Positions 13,569 through 19,782 of a stretch of DNA of 26,510 nucleotides are shown in pieces. Positions within the stretch are counted from its first letter, which is position 1. Each line of letters opens with the position of its first letter. The position numbers and the translations under genes were made by a program. The DNA lies in NCBI GenBank assembly GCA_026014495.1, contig JAOZIF010000158.1, forward strand, positions 1-26,510, given 5' to 3'. Under the pieces are notes generated by a model. The model did no database searches, was not told the origin of the DNA, and worked only from the letters and a program-made list of their open reading frames with translations. The stretch comes from Candidatus Bathyarchaeum sp. (lineage in GTDB: Archaea > Thermoproteota > Bathyarchaeia > Bathyarchaeales > Bathyarchaeaceae).

Positions 13569-14111
13569 TTGAGAGAACAAAACTATGCACTGTCTGGTCT
13601 CCTTGGACCTTTGATTGCAGTTATTTGTATTGCAGGGTCTATACTTTTGTCTCCGTGGTTCAGCTGGGAAATCAACGCTTTGAGTGACCTTGGGCACTCT
13701 GTTAATAGTGATGTGGCGCCGTTGTTCAATTTTGGATTGCTTTCCTGTGGTTTTTTAATGATTTTTTATTCAGTTACAAGTTTTAGGGGTCACGCAAAAT
13801 ACACGAGCTATTTTCTGATGTTTTCTGGGCTGGCTCTACAGCTGGTTGCTACTTTCAATGAGGTTTATAAACCGCTTCACTTTCAGGTTTCTGTGCTGTT
13901 CTTTTTGTCGTTATGCTTTGCATCAGTTAGCTACATCATAGAGAAAAGGTCGATTCTGGCAGTTGTTGCTTTAACTATTGGTCTTATTTCGTGGATACTG
14001 TATGGGCTGGATGTGTACAGTGCTGGTATTGCGGTGCCCGAGACCGTGTCATCAATGGCTACTGCCTCGTGGGTTGTGTTGGCTGCTCTAAAAGATTACT
14101 TTGCTAAATAA
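13569..14111 (+). CDS. DUF998-like integral membrane protein
   Basis: FSW..NALSDLG and APLFNFGL motifs, about 6 hydrophobic segments, LHF.VS, and a late PE motif. Confidence 0.75.
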   Translation: MREQNYALSGLLGPLIAVICIAGSILLSPWFSWEINALSDLGHSVNSDVAPLFNFGLLSCGFLMIFYSVTSFRGHAKYTSYFLMFSGLALQLVATFNEVYKPLHFQVSVLFFLSLCFASVSYIIEKRSILAVVALTIGLISWILYGLDVYSAGIAVPETVSSMATASWVVLAALKDYFAK

Positions 14112-14282: not shown

Positions 14283-14666
14283 TCAGGTTAGGGGTTGTGG
14301 TTGTTTTGGGACACAGTTGTTGTTAATTGGTATTCGGTTTAGCCCTATGCTTGTGAGTCTACGGCAGATGTGGTTGAGGGACTCTTCTGTGCCGTTTAAT
14401 AGGTTGGCTCCTTCGGGAGTTAATGAGTAAACTTTTCGTGGACGGTAGTTGTTTAGGTCCCATTGGCTTTTGATGTACCCTTTTTCTTCTAGGACGCCGA
14501 GCATAGGGTATATTGTGCTTGGACCGAAGTAAACGCCGAAGTTTCTGCGGATGCTTGTGATGATGTTGTATCCGTGTCTGGGTTTTACTTTTAGGAATTG
14601 TAGGATTACTAGGTCTAGTAGGCCTCTCATGAGCTTTATTTGTACTTCTCGAAGTTTTTCTCGCAT
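14283..14666 (-). CDS. PadR-family transcriptional regulator
   Basis: RGLLDLVILQFL...HGYNI...FGPSTIYPMLGVLEEKGYI...RKVYSLTPEG. Confidence 0.9.
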   Translation of the reverse strand: MREKLREVQIKLMRGLLDLVILQFLKVKPRHGYNIITSIRRNFGVYFGPSTIYPMLGVLEEKGYIKSQWDLNNYRPRKVYSLTPEGANLLNGTEESLNHICRRLTSIGLNRIPINNNCVPKQPQPLT

Positions 14667-14721
14667 TTTTGTTTCCTCTTTTGTGTTTTTGTTTTACAGT
14701 TCTTCAGTTTTACACATATAC

Positions 14722-14745
14722 AATATGTCCATTTTCTGACATATT
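14722..14745. promoter_or_regulatory. Inverted-repeat operator between divergent padR genes
   Basis: AATATGTC-CATTTTCT-GACATATT: perfect 8-bp arms with an 8-nt spacer. Confidence 0.6.
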
Positions 14746-14828
14746 ACAATATTCATATAACATAAAAACACGATATAAACGTTCGTGCGACCTGCAAACA
14801 TAAAAAAGCATACCTGAACATACAAAAA

Positions 14829-15278
14829 ATGTGGAAAAACCTAGGCAACTTAAATAAACACAAGCATCCAACTACAATAATACACAACAGGAAACCAAAA
14901 ACGTTGACAGAAAACGAAAAAAAACAACTTGTTCAACGCATAACCAGAAATTTCCTAGATGTACTAATTTTAAGGCTCATACAAACAGAACCAATGTGGG
15001 GCTACAAAATAATCAAAAAAACCGAAAAACTCTTCGAAATAAAACTTAGACACGGCGCACTATACCCTTTACTTAACACCTTGGAATACGAAGGATACGC
15101 CAAAAGCAAAAAAACAACCAAAAAAGGACGCGTAAGAAAAGTTTACACAATCACTCCAAAAGGAACACAACTCGTTGACGCATACTACTCTTTCCTGAAA
15201 GAACAACTAGAAAAAATGGACCTAAAAGAGGAGGCTCAAATTGAAGAAAATTGTGGCTTACCTGAAAGCTCCAGTTGA
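14829..15278 (+). CDS. PadR-family transcriptional regulator (true start possibly TTG 14904)
   Basis: FLDVLILRLI...MWGYKI...HGALYPLLNTLE.EGY...RKVYTITPKG; a TATA-like TTAAATAA near 14851 lies inside the longer ORF and favours the later start. Confidence 0.88.
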   Translation: MWKNLGNLNKHKHPTTIIHNRKPKTLTENEKKQLVQRITRNFLDVLILRLIQTEPMWGYKIIKKTEKLFEIKLRHGALYPLLNTLEYEGYAKSKKTTKKGRVRKVYTITPKGTQLVDAYYSFLKEQLEKMDLKEEAQIEENCGLPESSS

Positions 15279-15380
15279 AACTAAGCGTTATGGCAAGGAC
15301 TGGAACGCACATCCATTTGATTTGTCGGTAGATGTGAGTAAACAAAGAAATTACCGTTTAATAAAACTGGGGAACTTGAA

Positions 15381-16370
15381 ATGAAAAACAAGAAGTTAAT
15401 TGTACAAGTTAACAAGCTGCTGGTAGAGCGAAGCAAAGAAGCACTGAACCGTGCAAAAAAAGAGATTACGAACGAAAAACGGGCAAGCAAAACGATTAAT
15501 GATGCTTTCAAGTATTACGCAAAAACTTGGAACGATGTTGTGCATCCGGGATTGGTTTCAATTGGTTGTGAAGCGGTGGGCGGAGATGCTGACGATGTAA
15601 TTGCCATACAGGTTGCTACTTTGTTGCTTACTGCTGGGTTTGATGTACATGACGACATAATTGATGAATCAGAGACAAAATATGGCAAACCCACTGTTTA
15701 CGCCAAGTTTGGCAAAAATGTTGCTCTTCTTGTAGGTGACGCCTTTTTGATGAAGGCACTAATTCTTCTCCACAAATTAGAGAAGCAACTTTCTTCAGAA
15801 AAGATGGATGCGATCTGGAACATAATTGATGGTCTCTTCTTCGAGTTGGGAGATGCTGAAGCTCTAGAGGCTTCCTTGAAAAGCAATGTAGATGTTTCTG
15901 CGGAAGAATGCTTCAAGATTCTGAAAATGAAATCTTCAACTTTCGAAGCACACATGCGAATTGGTGCCATTGTAGGCGGGGCAAAACAGGGTGATGTTGA
16001 GTTGCTGGGCGATTTTGGTAGAACATTAGGCCTTTTGATCAATATTCGTGAGGATTTCATTGACGTATTCGAGGCCGAAGAACTCCAAAACCGATTCAAG
16101 AACGAGTGTTTACCCATTCCAATCCTGTATGCATTCAAGAACAAACAGACAAAAAAGACAATAATGAATTATTTTTCAAAACAAAAAATTACGGACAACG
16201 ATGCAGAAAAAATAGTTGATATTGTATTTGATGATAAGAATGTTGAACTATTAAGAAATGAAATTACTTACATTTCTAAAAGAGCATGTAACACTATCAG
16301 CCATATTTCAAACAGTGAATTAACCGCTCAACTAAAAATACTGATTAGTGGAATAATTGAAGACTTATGA
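15381..16370 (+). CDS. Divergent polyprenyl (isoprenyl diphosphate) synthase-family protein
   Basis: FARM VHDDIID (aa 89-95), TVYAKFG...ALLVGD, KMKSS and a degenerate SARM NIREDFID (aa 221-228); lacks GGKRxR and RRG. Confidence 0.85.
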   Translation: MKNKKLIVQVNKLLVERSKEALNRAKKEITNEKRASKTINDAFKYYAKTWNDVVHPGLVSIGCEAVGGDADDVIAIQVATLLLTAGFDVHDDIIDESETKYGKPTVYAKFGKNVALLVGDAFLMKALILLHKLEKQLSSEKMDAIWNIIDGLFFELGDAEALEASLKSNVDVSAEECFKILKMKSSTFEAHMRIGAIVGGAKQGDVELLGDFGRTLGLLINIREDFIDVFEAEELQNRFKNECLPIPILYAFKNKQTKKTIMNYFSKQKITDNDAEKIVDIVFDDKNVELLRNEITYISKRACNTISHISNSELTAQLKILISGIIEDL

Positions 16371-16526
16371 ATGGCGCCTAGCGGAATTAAACGCCATATA
16401 TTCTTGTTGGTTTTTGTTTTTTCTGTGCCATGTTTCATCACTAACTGTATTCATGTTCTACAAGTTAGATATAAGCTTTGTTCTACACAACTACAAATCG
16501 TTTACTTGACACTTAGTCTAGATTAG
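16371..16526 (+). CDS. Putative 51-aa small protein in the duplicated unit (copy 1)
   Basis: ATG immediately follows the synthase TGA; MAPSGIKRHIFLLVFVFSVPCFITNCIHVLQVRYKLCSTQLQIVYLTLSLD*; no SD or homology support. Confidence 0.3.
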   Translation: MAPSGIKRHIFLLVFVFSVPCFITNCIHVLQVRYKLCSTQLQIVYLTLSLD

Positions 16527-16600
16527 AATTCTATTTACAGAAATTTTGATCAATCATTCATCTAAAAATATTAACCAGCGAAATAATTGAAGACTTATGA

Positions 16601-16756
16601 ATGGCGCCTAGCGGAATTAAACGCCATATATTCTTGTTGGTTTTTGTTTTTTCTGTGCCATGTTTCATCACTAACTGTATTCATGTTCTACAAGTTAGAT
16701 ATAAGCTTTGTTCTACACAACTACAAATCGTTTACTTGACACTTAGTCTAGATTAG
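16601..16756 (+). CDS. Putative 51-aa small protein in the duplicated unit (copy 2)
   Basis: Identical copy of 16371-16526. Confidence 0.3.
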   Translation: MAPSGIKRHIFLLVFVFSVPCFITNCIHVLQVRYKLCSTQLQIVYLTLSLD

Positions 16757-16802
16757 AATTCTATTTACAGAAATTTTATCTCTGTAATGCCCCATTATTG
16801 GC

Positions 16803-18065
16803 GTGATGAGTTGTAACAGAATGGGAGAAAAAGCGGCTATAACCAAGTCCATCTTTCAGAGAGAGTTTCTTTCGGTACTAATTATAGTTGTAAACGCGTT
16901 CTCATGGTATTTTCCATTGTATATACTCTTCCAAAACGCCTTAGAACAATTTCAACTGGATTCCACTTTGTTGTTGACTGCGTTCGGAATTCAAGCTGTG
17001 GCAGCTATTGGTTTTGCAATAATTGGAACCACTTTGTTGAAAAAATTTCCGAGACGTGATCTATTTCTAACCGTTTGGATGTTCATTGGAATTATTGTTT
17101 CTGTACTATTGATTACGTTAGAGACATTTAATGTGGCATATCTGTTATCTGTTTCTTTTCTTTCTGGATTTTCGTTAGGATTAGGTTTTCCCTCTTGTCT
17201 CGCATATTTCGGAGATCACACTAAAGTTGAAAACAGGGGATTGTTGGCTGGAATCACATTCTTTGCGTCAGGCCTCGCTATTCTCTTAATTGGTTTGATC
17301 ATAAACTTTTCCACTCTGGTTACTGGAGCATTGATACTTGCTGCATGGAGAGGAATTGGTTTGCTCCTGTTTCTTCTTGTCAAATCAAAAAAGGATTACC
17401 CACAAGAAAAACAGTTCGAAGCACCCTATAAAGCAGTTTTATTCGACAAGTCTTTTCTATTATATTTCATTCCATGGACTTTGTTTTGTGCAGTAAACTT
17501 TCTTGGAGTGCCTATAGAAATTAATCTTTTTGGAGAAGAGTTGGGTTCTCTCATGCCTATTGGAGAATATGGAGTTGGCGGTTTTGTTGCATTAATAGGT
17601 GGTTGGTTCGCTGATACTGTTGGTCGAAAACGGATAATTATTGTCGGGTTCGTAATGTTAGGAATTGGATTTGCTGTGTTAGGGCTTTTTCCGGGTGATG
17701 TTCTTTCTTGGTATTTGTATATTATCGTAGACGGCATCGCATGGGGAATCTTTTCGCTGATGTTTTATCTTGTCATTTGGTCCGAACTGGCTGGAAATCG
17801 AACAAAAGAGAAATATTACATGCTAGGCGTATTACCGTTTCTCACTGCAAGCTACATACAAATATTATTCACACCTTTTGCTGGAAGTGTCGAGGCATCG
17901 TCAGCGTTTTCGTTAGCCAGCTTTTTCCTATTCATCGCAGTTTTGCCTTTACTGTACGCCCCGGAAACTATGCCTGAAAAGAAGATTGAACTTAAGCGGC
18001 TCCAGAAATTTGCTGAAGATGCGAAGAAGGCTAAAGAAAAGTACGAAAGAAAAATGGAAAAATAA
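16803..18065 (+). CDS. MFS transporter
   Basis: About 12 hydrophobic helices; YFGD..KVENRG, GWFADTVGRK (MFS motif A), WSELAG and APET motifs; start could be 16806 or 16821. Confidence 0.85.
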   Translation: MMSCNRMGEKAAITKSIFQREFLSVLIIVVNAFSWYFPLYILFQNALEQFQLDSTLLLTAFGIQAVAAIGFAIIGTTLLKKFPRRDLFLTVWMFIGIIVSVLLITLETFNVAYLLSVSFLSGFSLGLGFPSCLAYFGDHTKVENRGLLAGITFFASGLAILLIGLIINFSTLVTGALILAAWRGIGLLLFLLVKSKKDYPQEKQFEAPYKAVLFDKSFLLYFIPWTLFCAVNFLGVPIEINLFGEELGSLMPIGEYGVGGFVALIGGWFADTVGRKRIIIVGFVMLGIGFAVLGLFPGDVLSWYLYIIVDGIAWGIFSLMFYLVIWSELAGNRTKEKYYMLGVLPFLTASYIQILFTPFAGSVEASSAFSLASFFLFIAVLPLLYAPETMPEKKIELKRLQKFAEDAKKAKEKYERKMEK

Positions 18066-18070
18066 AAAAA

Positions 18071-18847
18071 TTAGAATTTTTCTACTTTTTCTGCCAAGTC
18101 TTCTAGGGTCTCTGTGAATGGGTGGTCGGGTCTTTCTTCGGTGAATATGAAGTTTCCTGCTGCGCGAAGCACTTCACAGAAGCATGGAATTGTGGCTAAT
18201 ATTGGAAGGTTGTGGATGTCTTTCATTTTTTTAGTGAACTTTTTCTGCTCTTCCTTGGATTTTAGATAGTCTACGATTACTTTGTTTATCAAAATTCCTG
18301 TTTTCTTTTCGAAGAGGTCGTAAAGTTCGCTGGTCATCCGTTGACTTCCGTTAATGTCTGAGGCGTCCAAGCTTGTGACCACCAAGACAATGTCTGCGGC
18401 AACAATCGCGTTTATGGAAGAATACTGCAGTCCAGGACTTGTGTCAAAAATAATGTAATCAAAATTGCCGTCGTTAAGAAGTGCAGATCTAAGTGCCAAA
18501 AGTCTGCCTAGTGCTTTCATTTCCCATTTTCGGTCTTTGGCTGTCATGTCTCTTATTGCTTCGGTGGATGGGTTAGCTAGTCCAACCAGTAGTTTGCCGC
18601 CGTTGCCGTTATTGTTTGTTGCATCGATTAAGACTTTGTTGATTTCACATACTCCGTTAAGGTAATCGTTTAGCCAGTAGTCTAGATTCTGTTTTTTGAA
18701 TATAGCGTGAAGGCTTGGTGCACGAAAATCCAAGTCCATAAGACAGACTTTTTTACCATTTCTAACGAATGTAGCGGCTAAGTTAGTTGAAAGTGAAGTT
18801 TTCCCTGTTCCACCCTTATATGAGTGAACTGCTATAATTTTTTTCAT
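18071..18847 (-). CDS. MinD/ParA-family ATPase
   Basis: Deviant Walker A HSYKGGTGKT, LMDLDFRAPSL, IIFDTSPG and ILINKV. Confidence 0.92.
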   Translation of the reverse strand: MKKIIAVHSYKGGTGKTSLSTNLAATFVRNGKKVCLMDLDFRAPSLHAIFKKQNLDYWLNDYLNGVCEINKVLIDATNNNGNGGKLLVGLANPSTEAIRDMTAKDRKWEMKALGRLLALRSALLNDGNFDYIIFDTSPGLQYSSINAIVAADIVLVVTSLDASDINGSQRMTSELYDLFEKKTGILINKVIVDYLKSKEEQKKFTKKMKDIHNLPILATIPCFCEVLRAAGNFIFTEERPDHPFTETLEDLAEKVEKF

Positions 18848-18852
18848 CTATT

Positions 18853-19269
18853 TCAAGTCTCCCTATCAACATAGAAGTATGCCTTGCGGCCTTCCCTTTC
18901 TTTTTTCATATATCCCATGACCACTAACTGATTTAGATAACCACTCTCTACTGCTCTGGCTCGTTTTGTTTGTTCCGAGACTTCGTCTGCTGTTGCTTTT
19001 TCTAGTTTGCAGAGGGTTACTGCGGTTTTTCTTAGGTGGTCGGGGAGTGATAGTAATGTCATTACGTCCAAAGCTTCGGGTAGATTTTCTGGAAGTTCTC
19101 TTTGGCCGTGTTTTTGTATTTCAATCATCACATCTATTTTTTCGTTTAGTTGTTCGAGGTTTTCTCTGATTTTTTCTAGGATTTGTGTTGATTTTCCCTC
19201 AATCTTTCGGTATGCTGCCATGGTTGTGGTCCTAGATGTGTTTTCCGTATCTACAGTATTGTAACTCAC
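18853..19269 (-). CDS. Coiled-coil + winged-HTH DNA-binding protein, co-oriented 5 nt upstream of the MinD/ParA gene
   Basis: LEKIRENLEQLNEKIDVM coiled coil; ATADEVSEQTKRARAVESGYLNQLV.MGY.KKEREGRKAYF wHTH. Confidence 0.8.
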   Translation of the reverse strand: MSYNTVDTENTSRTTTMAAYRKIEGKSTQILEKIRENLEQLNEKIDVMIEIQKHGQRELPENLPEALDVMTLLSLPDHLRKTAVTLCKLEKATADEVSEQTKRARAVESGYLNQLVVMGYMKKEREGRKAYFYVDRET

Positions 19270-19402: not shown

Positions 19403-19699
19403 CTAATAAAGTGAAGCGGGTATTCTAGCTTGCCCATCTTCAATGACGGGTAGCATGACCTTCAATTCTCTGAAATACTTCAGAACCTTCAGTCCTTTTT
19501 CAGAAACGACGTAAACTATCCTCTTCTTACCTACAGTCTTCTCTTCGACAAGTTCCTGCTCGATGAGAAAGTCCAAATACTCCTTGAGGACACTGCAGTT
19601 CACGTTAGCCTTATACATGATGTGCGTTAGCTTCAGTGGACCCCTTTGGGCCAGAACCTTGAGGATGTCAATATACATCTCGAGTTTTGATCTTCGCAT
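19403..19699 (-). CDS. Small winged-HTH transcriptional regulator (HTH_45-like)
   Basis: MRRSKLEMYIDILKVL...LKLTHIMYKANVNCSVLKEYLDFL...Y..SEKG; ATG 19699 with GAGG upstream is preferred over 19744. Confidence 0.85.
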   Translation of the reverse strand: MRRSKLEMYIDILKVLAQRGPLKLTHIMYKANVNCSVLKEYLDFLIEQELVEEKTVGKKRIVYVVSEKGLKVLKYFRELKVMLPVIEDGQARIPASLY

Positions 19700-19782
19700 G
19701 TTAACGCCTCTTGAGCTTATTTTTCTCCAATTTATATATATCATTTATGGATTCAAAGTAATGTTTTTGTGATTCATTTTTG

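Follow-up and report, generated by a model that had tools for sequence, protein, structure and literature searches.

A PadR-linked archaeal module pairing a putative prenyl enzyme with its own membrane transporter type in Bathyarchaeia

We describe a gene module on a 26,510-nucleotide (nt) stretch of DNA from Candidatus Bathyarchaeum sp. (assembly GCA_026014495.1, contig JAOZIF010000158.1; contig C73 in our numbering, hereafter the window), part of a Bathyarchaeia metagenome-assembled genome of 2.19 Mb that comprises 196 contigs and is 93% complete. The module consists of two divergent genes for PadR-family regulators, PadR1 and PadR2, followed by a gene for an enzyme resembling isoprenyl diphosphate synthases (IDS) and a gene for a membrane protein of the major facilitator superfamily (MFS). 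The comparative data give good support to a coherent, conserved and apparently regulator-controlled module of the 'prenyl enzyme plus exporter' kind. The function that we tentatively favour is that of a PadR-controlled module in which the enzyme would use prenyl diphosphates without elongating them and the paired MFS protein would take over the hydrophobic product.

The genes between 14283 and 19744 were called from the list of open reading frames (ORFs) together with Pfam and NCBIfam scans. The four genes of the module all score above the Pfam cut-offs:

14283..14666, minus strand: PadR1, short winged-helix regulator of 127 amino acids (aa), divergent from PadR2 (PF03551, 57.5 bits, cut-off 27)
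14829..15278, plus strand: PadR2, second PadR-family regulator, 149 aa (PF03551, 63.2 bits, cut-off 27)
15381..16370, plus strand: IDS-like enzyme, 329 aa (PF00348, 97 bits, cut-off 27)
16803..18065, plus strand: MFS_1 membrane protein, 420 aa (PF07690, 66.8 bits, cut-off 33.4, residues 26-323)

An earlier sequence-only reading of this DNA had listed two PadR genes, an atypical synthase and an MFS gene, and the Pfam scans bear this list out. Its description of the padR gene as co-oriented with the rest holds for PadR2, which ends 102 nt 5' of the enzyme gene in the same orientation, but not for PadR1, which is divergent and lies on the minus strand.

The linkage of these genes is conserved well beyond the window. 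Of 17 loci sampled across Bathyarchaeia, 16 have the enzyme gene next to its own type of MFS gene, and the same adjacency was found in every metagenome contig long enough to show the neighbours. At the family level (31 genomes), both genes were detected in 24 genomes and neither in 5, the single-gene cases being a contig end and a 63%-complete genome. Enzyme type and MFS type always change together: A-type enzymes (56-70% identity) go with MFS proteins of 57-65% identity, and B-type enzymes (35-43%) go with MFS proteins of 34-43%. At the order level (61 genomes), the enzyme and PadR1 co-occur in 29 genomes, the enzyme alone is found in 2, PadR1 alone in 6 and neither in 24, so that 29 of 31 enzyme-positive genomes have a PadR1 orthologue; in 20 of those 29 the two genes are no more than 2 kb apart. 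PadR1 orthologues are 60-89% identical across the order, and PadR2 adjoins PadR1 and the enzyme gene in L003, L005, L011, L015, L021-L032, L041, L052 and L065. The enzyme gene is missing from whole families of the order (f3, 0/9; f4, 0/3). Linkage of the module far beyond chance is thus supported. The sequence-only reading would have fallen had conserved linkage to MFS or PadR genes been lacking; the linkage to both was found, and the linkage that it had proposed to a short ORF was not, since that ORF is unconserved in 20 related loci (see below).

Variant arrangements were also seen. Genome G364 of family f2 (L088 and L089) contains four IDS-like genes and tandem arrays of two to four MFS genes of the family type, and in a sister genus (G077) about 2.7 kb are inserted between the MFS and MinD-like ATPase genes (L003:12107-14855).

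Comparison with a genome of the same genus, G090, indicated that the enzyme and MFS genes are exchanged as a unit. The flanks align on both sides of the locus at 74-77% nucleotide identity (77-89% at the protein level), while the first of the following two segments stands apart, the second being the conserved end of its MFS gene:

15233..17906, no strand assigned: exchanged enzyme and MFS cassette, without detectable nucleotide similarity to the syntenic locus of G090 (blastn, tblastn)
17900-18065, plus strand: cytoplasmic tail motif of the MFS protein, APETMPEKKIELKRL..FAEDAKKAKEKY, kept in all MFS genes of the family

The G090 enzyme is 43% identical and its MFS protein 35% identical to those of the window. 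In the tree, the A-type clade of the window nests inside the clade of family f2 and is not sister to the B-type of its own family; sister genera carry B and A enzymes in tandem before an A-type MFS gene. Because the flanks align while both genes diverge, and because the A-type nests in f2, we conclude that the enzyme and MFS genes move and are replaced together. The right-hand edge of the cassette is not exactly placeable because it falls in the conserved MFS tail. A sharp recombination edge in the 3' end of the MFS gene was considered as proof of exchange and rejected, the segment encoding the family-wide tail motif. This tail, APETLPEK-I-x-[DE]REL-x-Y-x-EKAKK-x-KEKY, is conserved from Bathyarchaeia to Methanomethylicia and may be where a cytoplasmic partner docks. 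Some MFS proteins of the family carry a long acidic extension after the tail, ending in ARKLAEKYY. The MFS sequence contains a motif-A-like GWFADTVGRKR, and a PDB sequence search with this protein detected no relative.

The enzyme has the trans-isoprenyl diphosphate synthase fold (AlphaFold2 pLDDT 93.7), and its best Foldseek match is the Pyrococcus geranylgeranyl diphosphate (GGPP) synthase 1wy0 (TM 0.81, 23% identity). It belongs to a sharply bounded subfamily: members score at least 235 bits with the subfamily profile and ordinary synthases at most 160 bits, with nothing between. The motifs of the window enzyme are as follows:

15528-15548, plus strand: W50-N51-D52...H55-P56, in place of the G-K-R..R-P that binds isopentenyl diphosphate (IPP)
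15651-15665, plus strand: D91-D92-I-I-D95, intact first aspartate-rich motif (FARM), DDxxD
15678-15686, plus strand: K100-Y101-G102, in place of RRG
16050-16064, plus strand: E224-D225-F-I-D228, resembling the second aspartate-rich motif (SARM), acidic, non-canonical for DDxxD

The sequence-only reading had called the synthase atypical on account of KYG and EDxxD, and these are indeed what stands at the RRG and DDxxD sites. Among 107 distinct subfamily members, the three aspartates of FARM are present in 106, 106 and 107, and the SARM-like pattern R-[DE]-[DE]-x-x-D has its acidic positions in 100, 107 and 104 ([D61/E39][D75/E32]xxD104), with N at the first position in 5. The IPP-binding G-G-K-R-x-R-P has become W(101)-x-[DE](102)-x-x-[H56/R47]-P, where D/E stands for K. 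RRG has become K-variable, the K being kept in 84 members and the second Arg being variable, and the KT lysine is kept in 99. Past the second motif, the G-x-D-x-x-x-G-K segment has become shorter, with loss of its lysine; the window enzyme reads E-C-L-P where synthases have GK. Besides this enzyme, the genome has a canonical synthase that scores 262 bits to Pfam and another one, and contig C123 carries a further member of the subfamily.

Since the IDS fold and both acidic metal motifs are kept, the subfamily probably binds and ionises an allylic prenyl diphosphate. Chain elongation, that is, condensation with IPP, has most likely been lost, because the IPP site is rebuilt (G-K-R to W-x-D/E, with RRG and GK lost). 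The inversion of a basic site into an aromatic and acidic one suggests that the acceptor is water, or a neutral or cationic compound. In characterised enzymes, a single Arg-to-Pro change in the KKxR-type motif abolishes elongation and yields terpene-synthase activity, and a swap of KKxR to SDAW abolishes elongation in an insect enzyme (PMC7484799).

We propose that the module would operate in the following way. The enzyme would bind and ionise an allylic prenyl diphosphate through its two acidic metal motifs, and the prenyl group would be passed to an acceptor, either water or a neutral or cationic compound, or a terpene would be released, in each case without chain elongation. The paired MFS protein, transcribed from a promoter and operator of its own, would take over the hydrophobic product for export or membrane insertion. 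The PadR proteins, encoded by the divergent PadR1 gene and by the PadR2 gene ahead of the enzyme and MFS genes, would govern the module through palindromic operators.

The predicted control elements consistent with this arrangement are located in two intergenic regions:

14667..14828, no strand assigned: divergent PadR1/PadR2 control region with a palindrome, TGTTTTACA-type boxes from 14690, an ATATAAA TATA-like box and GCATA repeats
14723-14744, no strand assigned: palindrome ATATGTC-N8-GACATAT, invariant in a 16-locus alignment spanning the order
16770..16802, plus strand: predicted proximal MFS promoter, GAAA-TTTTATCT, BRE/TATA-like (BRE, B recognition element), TATA at 16774-16781, with about 26 nt left to the start codon

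The PadR1/PadR2 region is strongly conserved throughout the order, with invariant blocks in the same 16-locus alignment; beside the palindrome it contains TGTT..ACAGTT boxes, the TATA-like box and the GCATA repeats. Only three copies of the palindrome are present in the 2.19-Mb genome, two of them directly upstream of PadR1-type genes: one in the PadR1/PadR2 region and one 72 nt upstream of a PadR1 paralogue on contig C186 (C186:1688). ATATGT-N8-12-ACATAT is not over-represented genome-wide (3 found vs about 2.6 expected by a rough estimate), only its positions being informative. We read the ATATGTC-N8-GACATAT palindrome as a putative PadR1-type operator. Written as ATATGTC-N8-(G/A)ACATAT, the palindrome has its third copy on C123 (L020:8656-8677), at about 55 nt from the downstream gene for a glutamine cyclotransferase; this gene may also belong to the regulon.

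In the enzyme-MFS intergenic region, the stop codon of the enzyme gene is followed, in order, by a variable stretch of about 35 nt, an oligo-T/C tract, a dyad that spans about 55 bp (ACTGTATT..TGTTCTACA.GTT.CTTATAAG.TTTGTTCAACA...ACAGTT), a second conserved block and the promoter, whose BRE/TATA-like AGAAATTTTATCT lies about 26 nt 5' of the MFS start. A-type and B-type loci alike keep the element AGA(A/G)(A/T)TTTTATCT, at equal distance to the MFS start, and the MFS mRNA is predicted to be leaderless or near-leaderless. We infer that the oligo-T/C tract serves as an archaeal terminator of the enzyme transcript, and the whole region is best read as a putative terminator followed by an operator and promoter for the MFS gene. 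Two TGTWSWACA boxes, 25-30 nt apart, were detected at the MFS promoter in nearly all loci of the order and were absent from Methanomethylicia loci. All four TGTWSWACA matches of the window (1.7 expected) fall in the enzyme-MFS intergenic region, and the double box is unique in the genome to that region. PadR2 is the obvious candidate for its binding.

Other models of these regions were tried and set aside. A single motif common to the PadR region and the MFS operator was dropped, TGTNNNACAGTT not being enriched in the window (8 found vs 10.9 expected). A structured RNA in the intergenic region was rejected, as the RNAalifold consensus reaches only -2.1 kcal/mol, shows no covariation and mirrors the DNA dyad; the Rfam scan of the region found no relevant family, with one chance match elsewhere (E = 0.38). 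The scan for sigma-70 promoters and terminators, which uses a bacterial model, was uninformative.

The enzyme-MFS intergenic region of the window is duplicated. The repeat is a 230-nt tandem DNA duplication (16319-16547 and 16549-16777), exact over 196 nt (16352-16547 = 16582-16777), and no further copies of the unit were found in the genome. The unit begins within the last 13 codons of the enzyme gene, and the duplication doubles the operator part and ends within the proximal TATA box. The 5' edge of copy 2 is marked by an abrupt step in identity, from 100% down to about 70%. The features of the repeat are:

16319..16548, plus strand: copy 1, with the true 3' end of the enzyme gene, the oligo-T/C tract (16402-16424) and the dyad operator, truncated within the proximal promoter
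16454-16462 and 16479-16487, plus strand: putative operator of copy 1, two TGTTCTACA boxes flanking the TATA-like GATATAAG (16468-16475)
16549..16778, plus strand: copy 2, with a diverged remnant (HLKILTSEIIEDL*) of the final 13 enzyme codons and the T/C tract (16632-16654), continuing into the intact proximal promoter
16684-16692 and 16709-16717, plus strand: putative operator of copy 2, boxes flanking a TATA-like element (16698-16705)
16371..16526, repeated at 16601-16756, plus strand: 51-codon 'micro-ORF', a chance ORF
16357-16509 and 16587-16739, plus strand: overlapping 50-codon ORF, a chance ORF

The sequence-only reading had pointed to a duplicated 51-codon ORF devoid of Trp. The duplication stands, as a repeat of DNA, and Trp is absent as described; the ORF itself was rejected as a gene because its frame is unconserved while the nucleotides are conserved. 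In 20 related single-copy loci its start is absent or displaced, its stops are scattered and the frames differ, and the length differences of the T/C-rich tract are not multiples of three. The nucleotides of the intergenic region are well kept in these relatives (74% mean column identity, with long invariant blocks), and tblastn matches both overlapping frames about equally. Neither the 51-codon nor the 50-codon ORF has a Pfam match, and the hydrophobic run of the former reads as a translated T-rich tract.

An artefact of assembly, in which strain mixtures would have produced the two copies, would be understandable in a metagenome-assembled genome of this many contigs and with a repeat of 100% identity over 196 nt; however, the junction sequence is novel and must derive from reads. 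The same region, comprising the 3' end of the enzyme gene and the operator, is also duplicated, with other unit lengths, in two other assemblies. In L022:3287-3615 (a metagenome contig) the units are 100% identical with a 202-nt period, and in L128:4783-5516, on a 1.0-Mb Bathyarchaeota contig, a perfect 367-nt tandem unit with ACCTG microhomology yields an in-frame ORF of 60 aa in which the N-terminus of the MFS protein is joined to the C-terminus of the enzyme. Because these duplications of the same region are independent, an artefact seems improbable; either the site seems to duplicate readily, or its duplication seems to be favoured by selection.

The subfamily ranges over Bathyarchaeia, Methanomethylicia (Methanosuratincola, Methanomethylicus) and Methanomassiliicoccales, the enzymes of the last nesting inside the Methanomethylicia clade of the tree. 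In Methanomethylicia, the order enzyme > MFS < MinD-like ATPase < TrmB-like protein is kept in every sufficiently long locus. The constant theme across the clades is the enzyme with a polytopic membrane protein and a P-loop-type domain. One Methanomethylicia lineage has no MFS partner, and its IDS-like gene (L080:8074-9051) is divergent from a gene with TackOD1, an archaeal signalling output domain.

In the window, three further genes follow the module on the opposite strand:

18071..18847, minus strand: MinD/ParA-type deviant Walker-A ATPase, 258 aa (AAA_31, ParA, CbiA), convergent with the MFS gene
18853..19269, minus strand: TrmB-like winged-helix protein, 138 aa, with a coiled-coil N-terminus (TrmB E = 1.5e-5, slightly below the Pfam cut-off), in an operon with the ATPase gene
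19403..19744, minus strand: HTH_45/Sso10a-like protein (Pfam/NCBIfam scan)

The nearest solved structures of the ATPase are MinD, Soj and FleN, and the TrmB-like protein, in an Atlas search, matched nothing but clusters of hypothetical winged-helix proteins from Bathyarchaeota. Contig C123 of the same genome contains a second, divergent module (L020:475-4713) of PadR, MinD-like ATPase, TrmB-like protein, IDS-like enzyme and MFS genes, with the enzyme 27% and the MFS protein about 25% identical to those of the window. Both genomic copies of the TrmB-like protein (C73 and C123) lie beside an enzyme and MFS pair, and paralogues of the MinD-like ATPase adjoin such a pair on C123 and in Methanomethylicia. 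The ATPase and TrmB-like pair of the window was nevertheless dropped as a core member of the module, its orthologue being elsewhere in f2 and f5; orthologues were also found in genomes (G008, G062, G094, G110) for which the search, at its threshold, detected no enzyme gene. The adjacency of this pair in the window is weaker evidence than the MFS and PadR links; only the paralogous linkage of the C123 type and that of Methanomethylicia are robust.

On the other side, a DUF998 membrane protein gene (13569-14111) lies upstream of PadR1 and is syntenic in the genus and in A-type metagenome contigs; a DUF998 homologue is also located near the module in G102 (L016). PADLOC gave no match to a defence system.

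Several observations weigh against a PadR-controlled module of a non-elongating prenyl enzyme and an MFS transporter. Of the 107 members, 47 keep an Arg at the position equivalent to R81 (His in 56, including the A-type of the window), and the basic residue at the position of K100, in the 84 members that have it, leaves residual IPP binding possible. The second motif is acidic like that of elongating synthases, whereas classical terpene synthases have an NSD triad there. The regulator-operator assignments are drawn from motif positions only, and the compared genomes are related, so that the co-occurrence counts overstate independence and are descriptive only, not a statistical test. In Methanomassiliicoccales the partner is not an MFS protein but a 393-aa protein with seven transmembrane helices (7TM) and DUF835, encoded upstream in 8 of 8 loci:

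L110:2304-3485, L113:2307-3488, L116:2329-3510 and five more loci, Methanomassiliicoccales: 7TM + DUF835 partner genes

DUF835 is an inactivated KaiC-type (iKaiC) signalling domain (PMC5847659), and a sensory role fits this partner as well as a transport role does.

The retained Arg, His and K100 residues would suit a prenyl diphosphate synthase that still elongates chains in spite of its unusual IPP site, making a special chain length for a membrane lipid or carrier that the MFS protein would receive or flip. Both acidic motifs and the KT lysine are kept, small residues precede FARM (G at -5 in the window enzyme), and the fold is nearest to GGPP and long-chain synthases. We consider this unlikely, since G-K-R has given way to W-x-D/E in about 95% of members and the lysine of GK is gone, while single changes at this motif are enough to end elongation in characterised enzymes (PMC7484799). 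Canonical synthases are, moreover, already present in the genome, and, with the gene absent from whole families (f3 and f4), this is not a core lipid function. The 7TM-iKaiC partner of the Methanomassiliicoccales loci points instead to a membrane-associated sensing or regulatory device, where the IDS-like protein would bind or make an isoprenoid ligand for the MFS or 7TM-iKaiC protein and a P-loop/winged-helix pair or PadR would relay the signal to transcription. The TackOD1 gene in L080, the MinD/FleN-type ATPase and winged-helix pair adjoining in Methanomethylicia and on C123, and the density of regulators at the locus agree with such a device. It is nonetheless rather improbable in our view: the strong conservation of the catalytic acidic motifs suggests chemistry rather than binding alone, the MFS protein has ordinary transporter motifs, and no known signalling domain is fused to either protein of the window.

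We give almost no credence to the model proposed in the sequence-only reading, a system like ComQ/ComX in which the enzyme would prenylate an adjacent peptide of about 51 aa for export as a quorum signal. An IDS-fold enzyme does lie beside a short ORF and a membrane protein, and the enzyme and membrane-protein cassette is polymorphic within a conserved frame, as such a system would have it. The proposed precursor, however, has no conserved start, stop or frame, lacks Trp and derives from a T-rich tract in duplicated regulatory DNA; the second motif, R-E-D-F-I-D in the window, is E-D-x-x-D and not a pseudo-SARM of ND type; and, as the sequence-only reading had itself remarked, a histidine kinase is missing, no match to HATPase_c (the histidine-kinase ATPase domain) being detected on contig C73. 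A ComQ/ComX system was therefore rejected on all three features tested (pseudo-SARM, Trp-containing short ORF and kinase). The ComQ family combines FARM with a metal-free ND-type pseudo-SARM and an adjacent gene for a short Trp-containing peptide (bioRxiv 10.64898/2026.08.29.745113).

Among known systems, the module shares features with several and differs from each of these. As in ComQ-ComX(-ComP-ComA) of Bacillus and StheQ-StheX of Sphaerobacter, an IDS-fold enzyme would use a prenyl diphosphate without elongation next to a membrane-protein gene. In Bacillus, the ComQ enzyme, the peptide and the membrane domain of the sensor vary together within a conserved frame, and a similar cassette-like covariation is seen here for the enzyme and MFS protein. 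Unlike the Bacillus and Sphaerobacter systems, ours has no Trp peptide gene and no kinase or response regulator, has an acidic [DE][DE]xxD motif and an MFS partner, and resides in an archaeal host.

For the enzyme itself, a comparison is offered by the IDS-like terpene synthases of rust fungi and insects, which arose from trans-IDS through changes in the basic IPP motif KKxR/GKxxR and keep FARM (PMC7484799; PMC6140472). In the archaeal subfamily, in contrast, the entire motif has turned into W-x-D/E, with the last Arg still present in about half of the members; there is no NSD triad, and these prokaryotic enzymes are tied to a transporter. The sequence and fold matches also included Ord1, an all-alpha-helical indole prenyltransferase of the IDS superfamily (PDB 9v4g-j; PMC12510300). 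It passes the prenyl group to a non-IPP acceptor (PMC12510300) and has a pseudo-SARM with catalytic Asn/Gln (bioRxiv 10.64898/2026.08.29.745113), but is 18% identical to the window enzyme, and the subfamily lacks a pseudo-SARM of the Asn/Gln type.

The regulatory part of the module resembles an arrangement of Lactococcus. In LmrR-LmrCD, a small PadR repressor is encoded beside an exporter, with ATGT...ACAT-type palindromes and an expected hydrophobic ligand. PadR genes beside an exporter-type gene and a palindrome of the ATGT...ACAT type are found here as well. The module differs in having two paralogous divergent PadR genes, an MFS gene tied to a biosynthetic-type enzyme, a 10-nt spacer in the palindrome and a second, putative operator type, the double TGTWSWACA box, at the transporter promoter.

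A broader picture, speculative and improbable as it stands, is that of a diversifying archaeal system that would make and export, or sense, a small prenylated or terpenoid intercellular molecule, with the enzyme and membrane domain swapped as specificity cassettes within a conserved regulatory frame. Such a system would be a peptide-free analogue of the Bacillus pherotypes, with an older four-gene form, made up of enzyme, MFS, MinD-like ATPase and winged-helix protein, shared with Methanomethylicia.

Our literature search found no published description of the subfamily or the module. Archaeal isoprenoid chemistry outside membrane lipids is almost unexplored, and a 2024-2026 preprint reported the first archaeal terpene synthases, which are of a different family. 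The analysis removes the peptide precursor as a tempting but false lead and defines a large, sharply bounded synthase-like subfamily with a charge-inverted acceptor site, each enzyme being tied to its own transporter type. Its hosts, Bathyarchaeia, Methanomethylicia and Methanomassiliicoccales, are abundant and mostly uncultured archaea of sediments and digesters. Taken together, the candidate operators and regulators offer handles on the control of the module, and the clonable enzyme-transporter pair is a target for the discovery of a new archaeal isoprenoid product.

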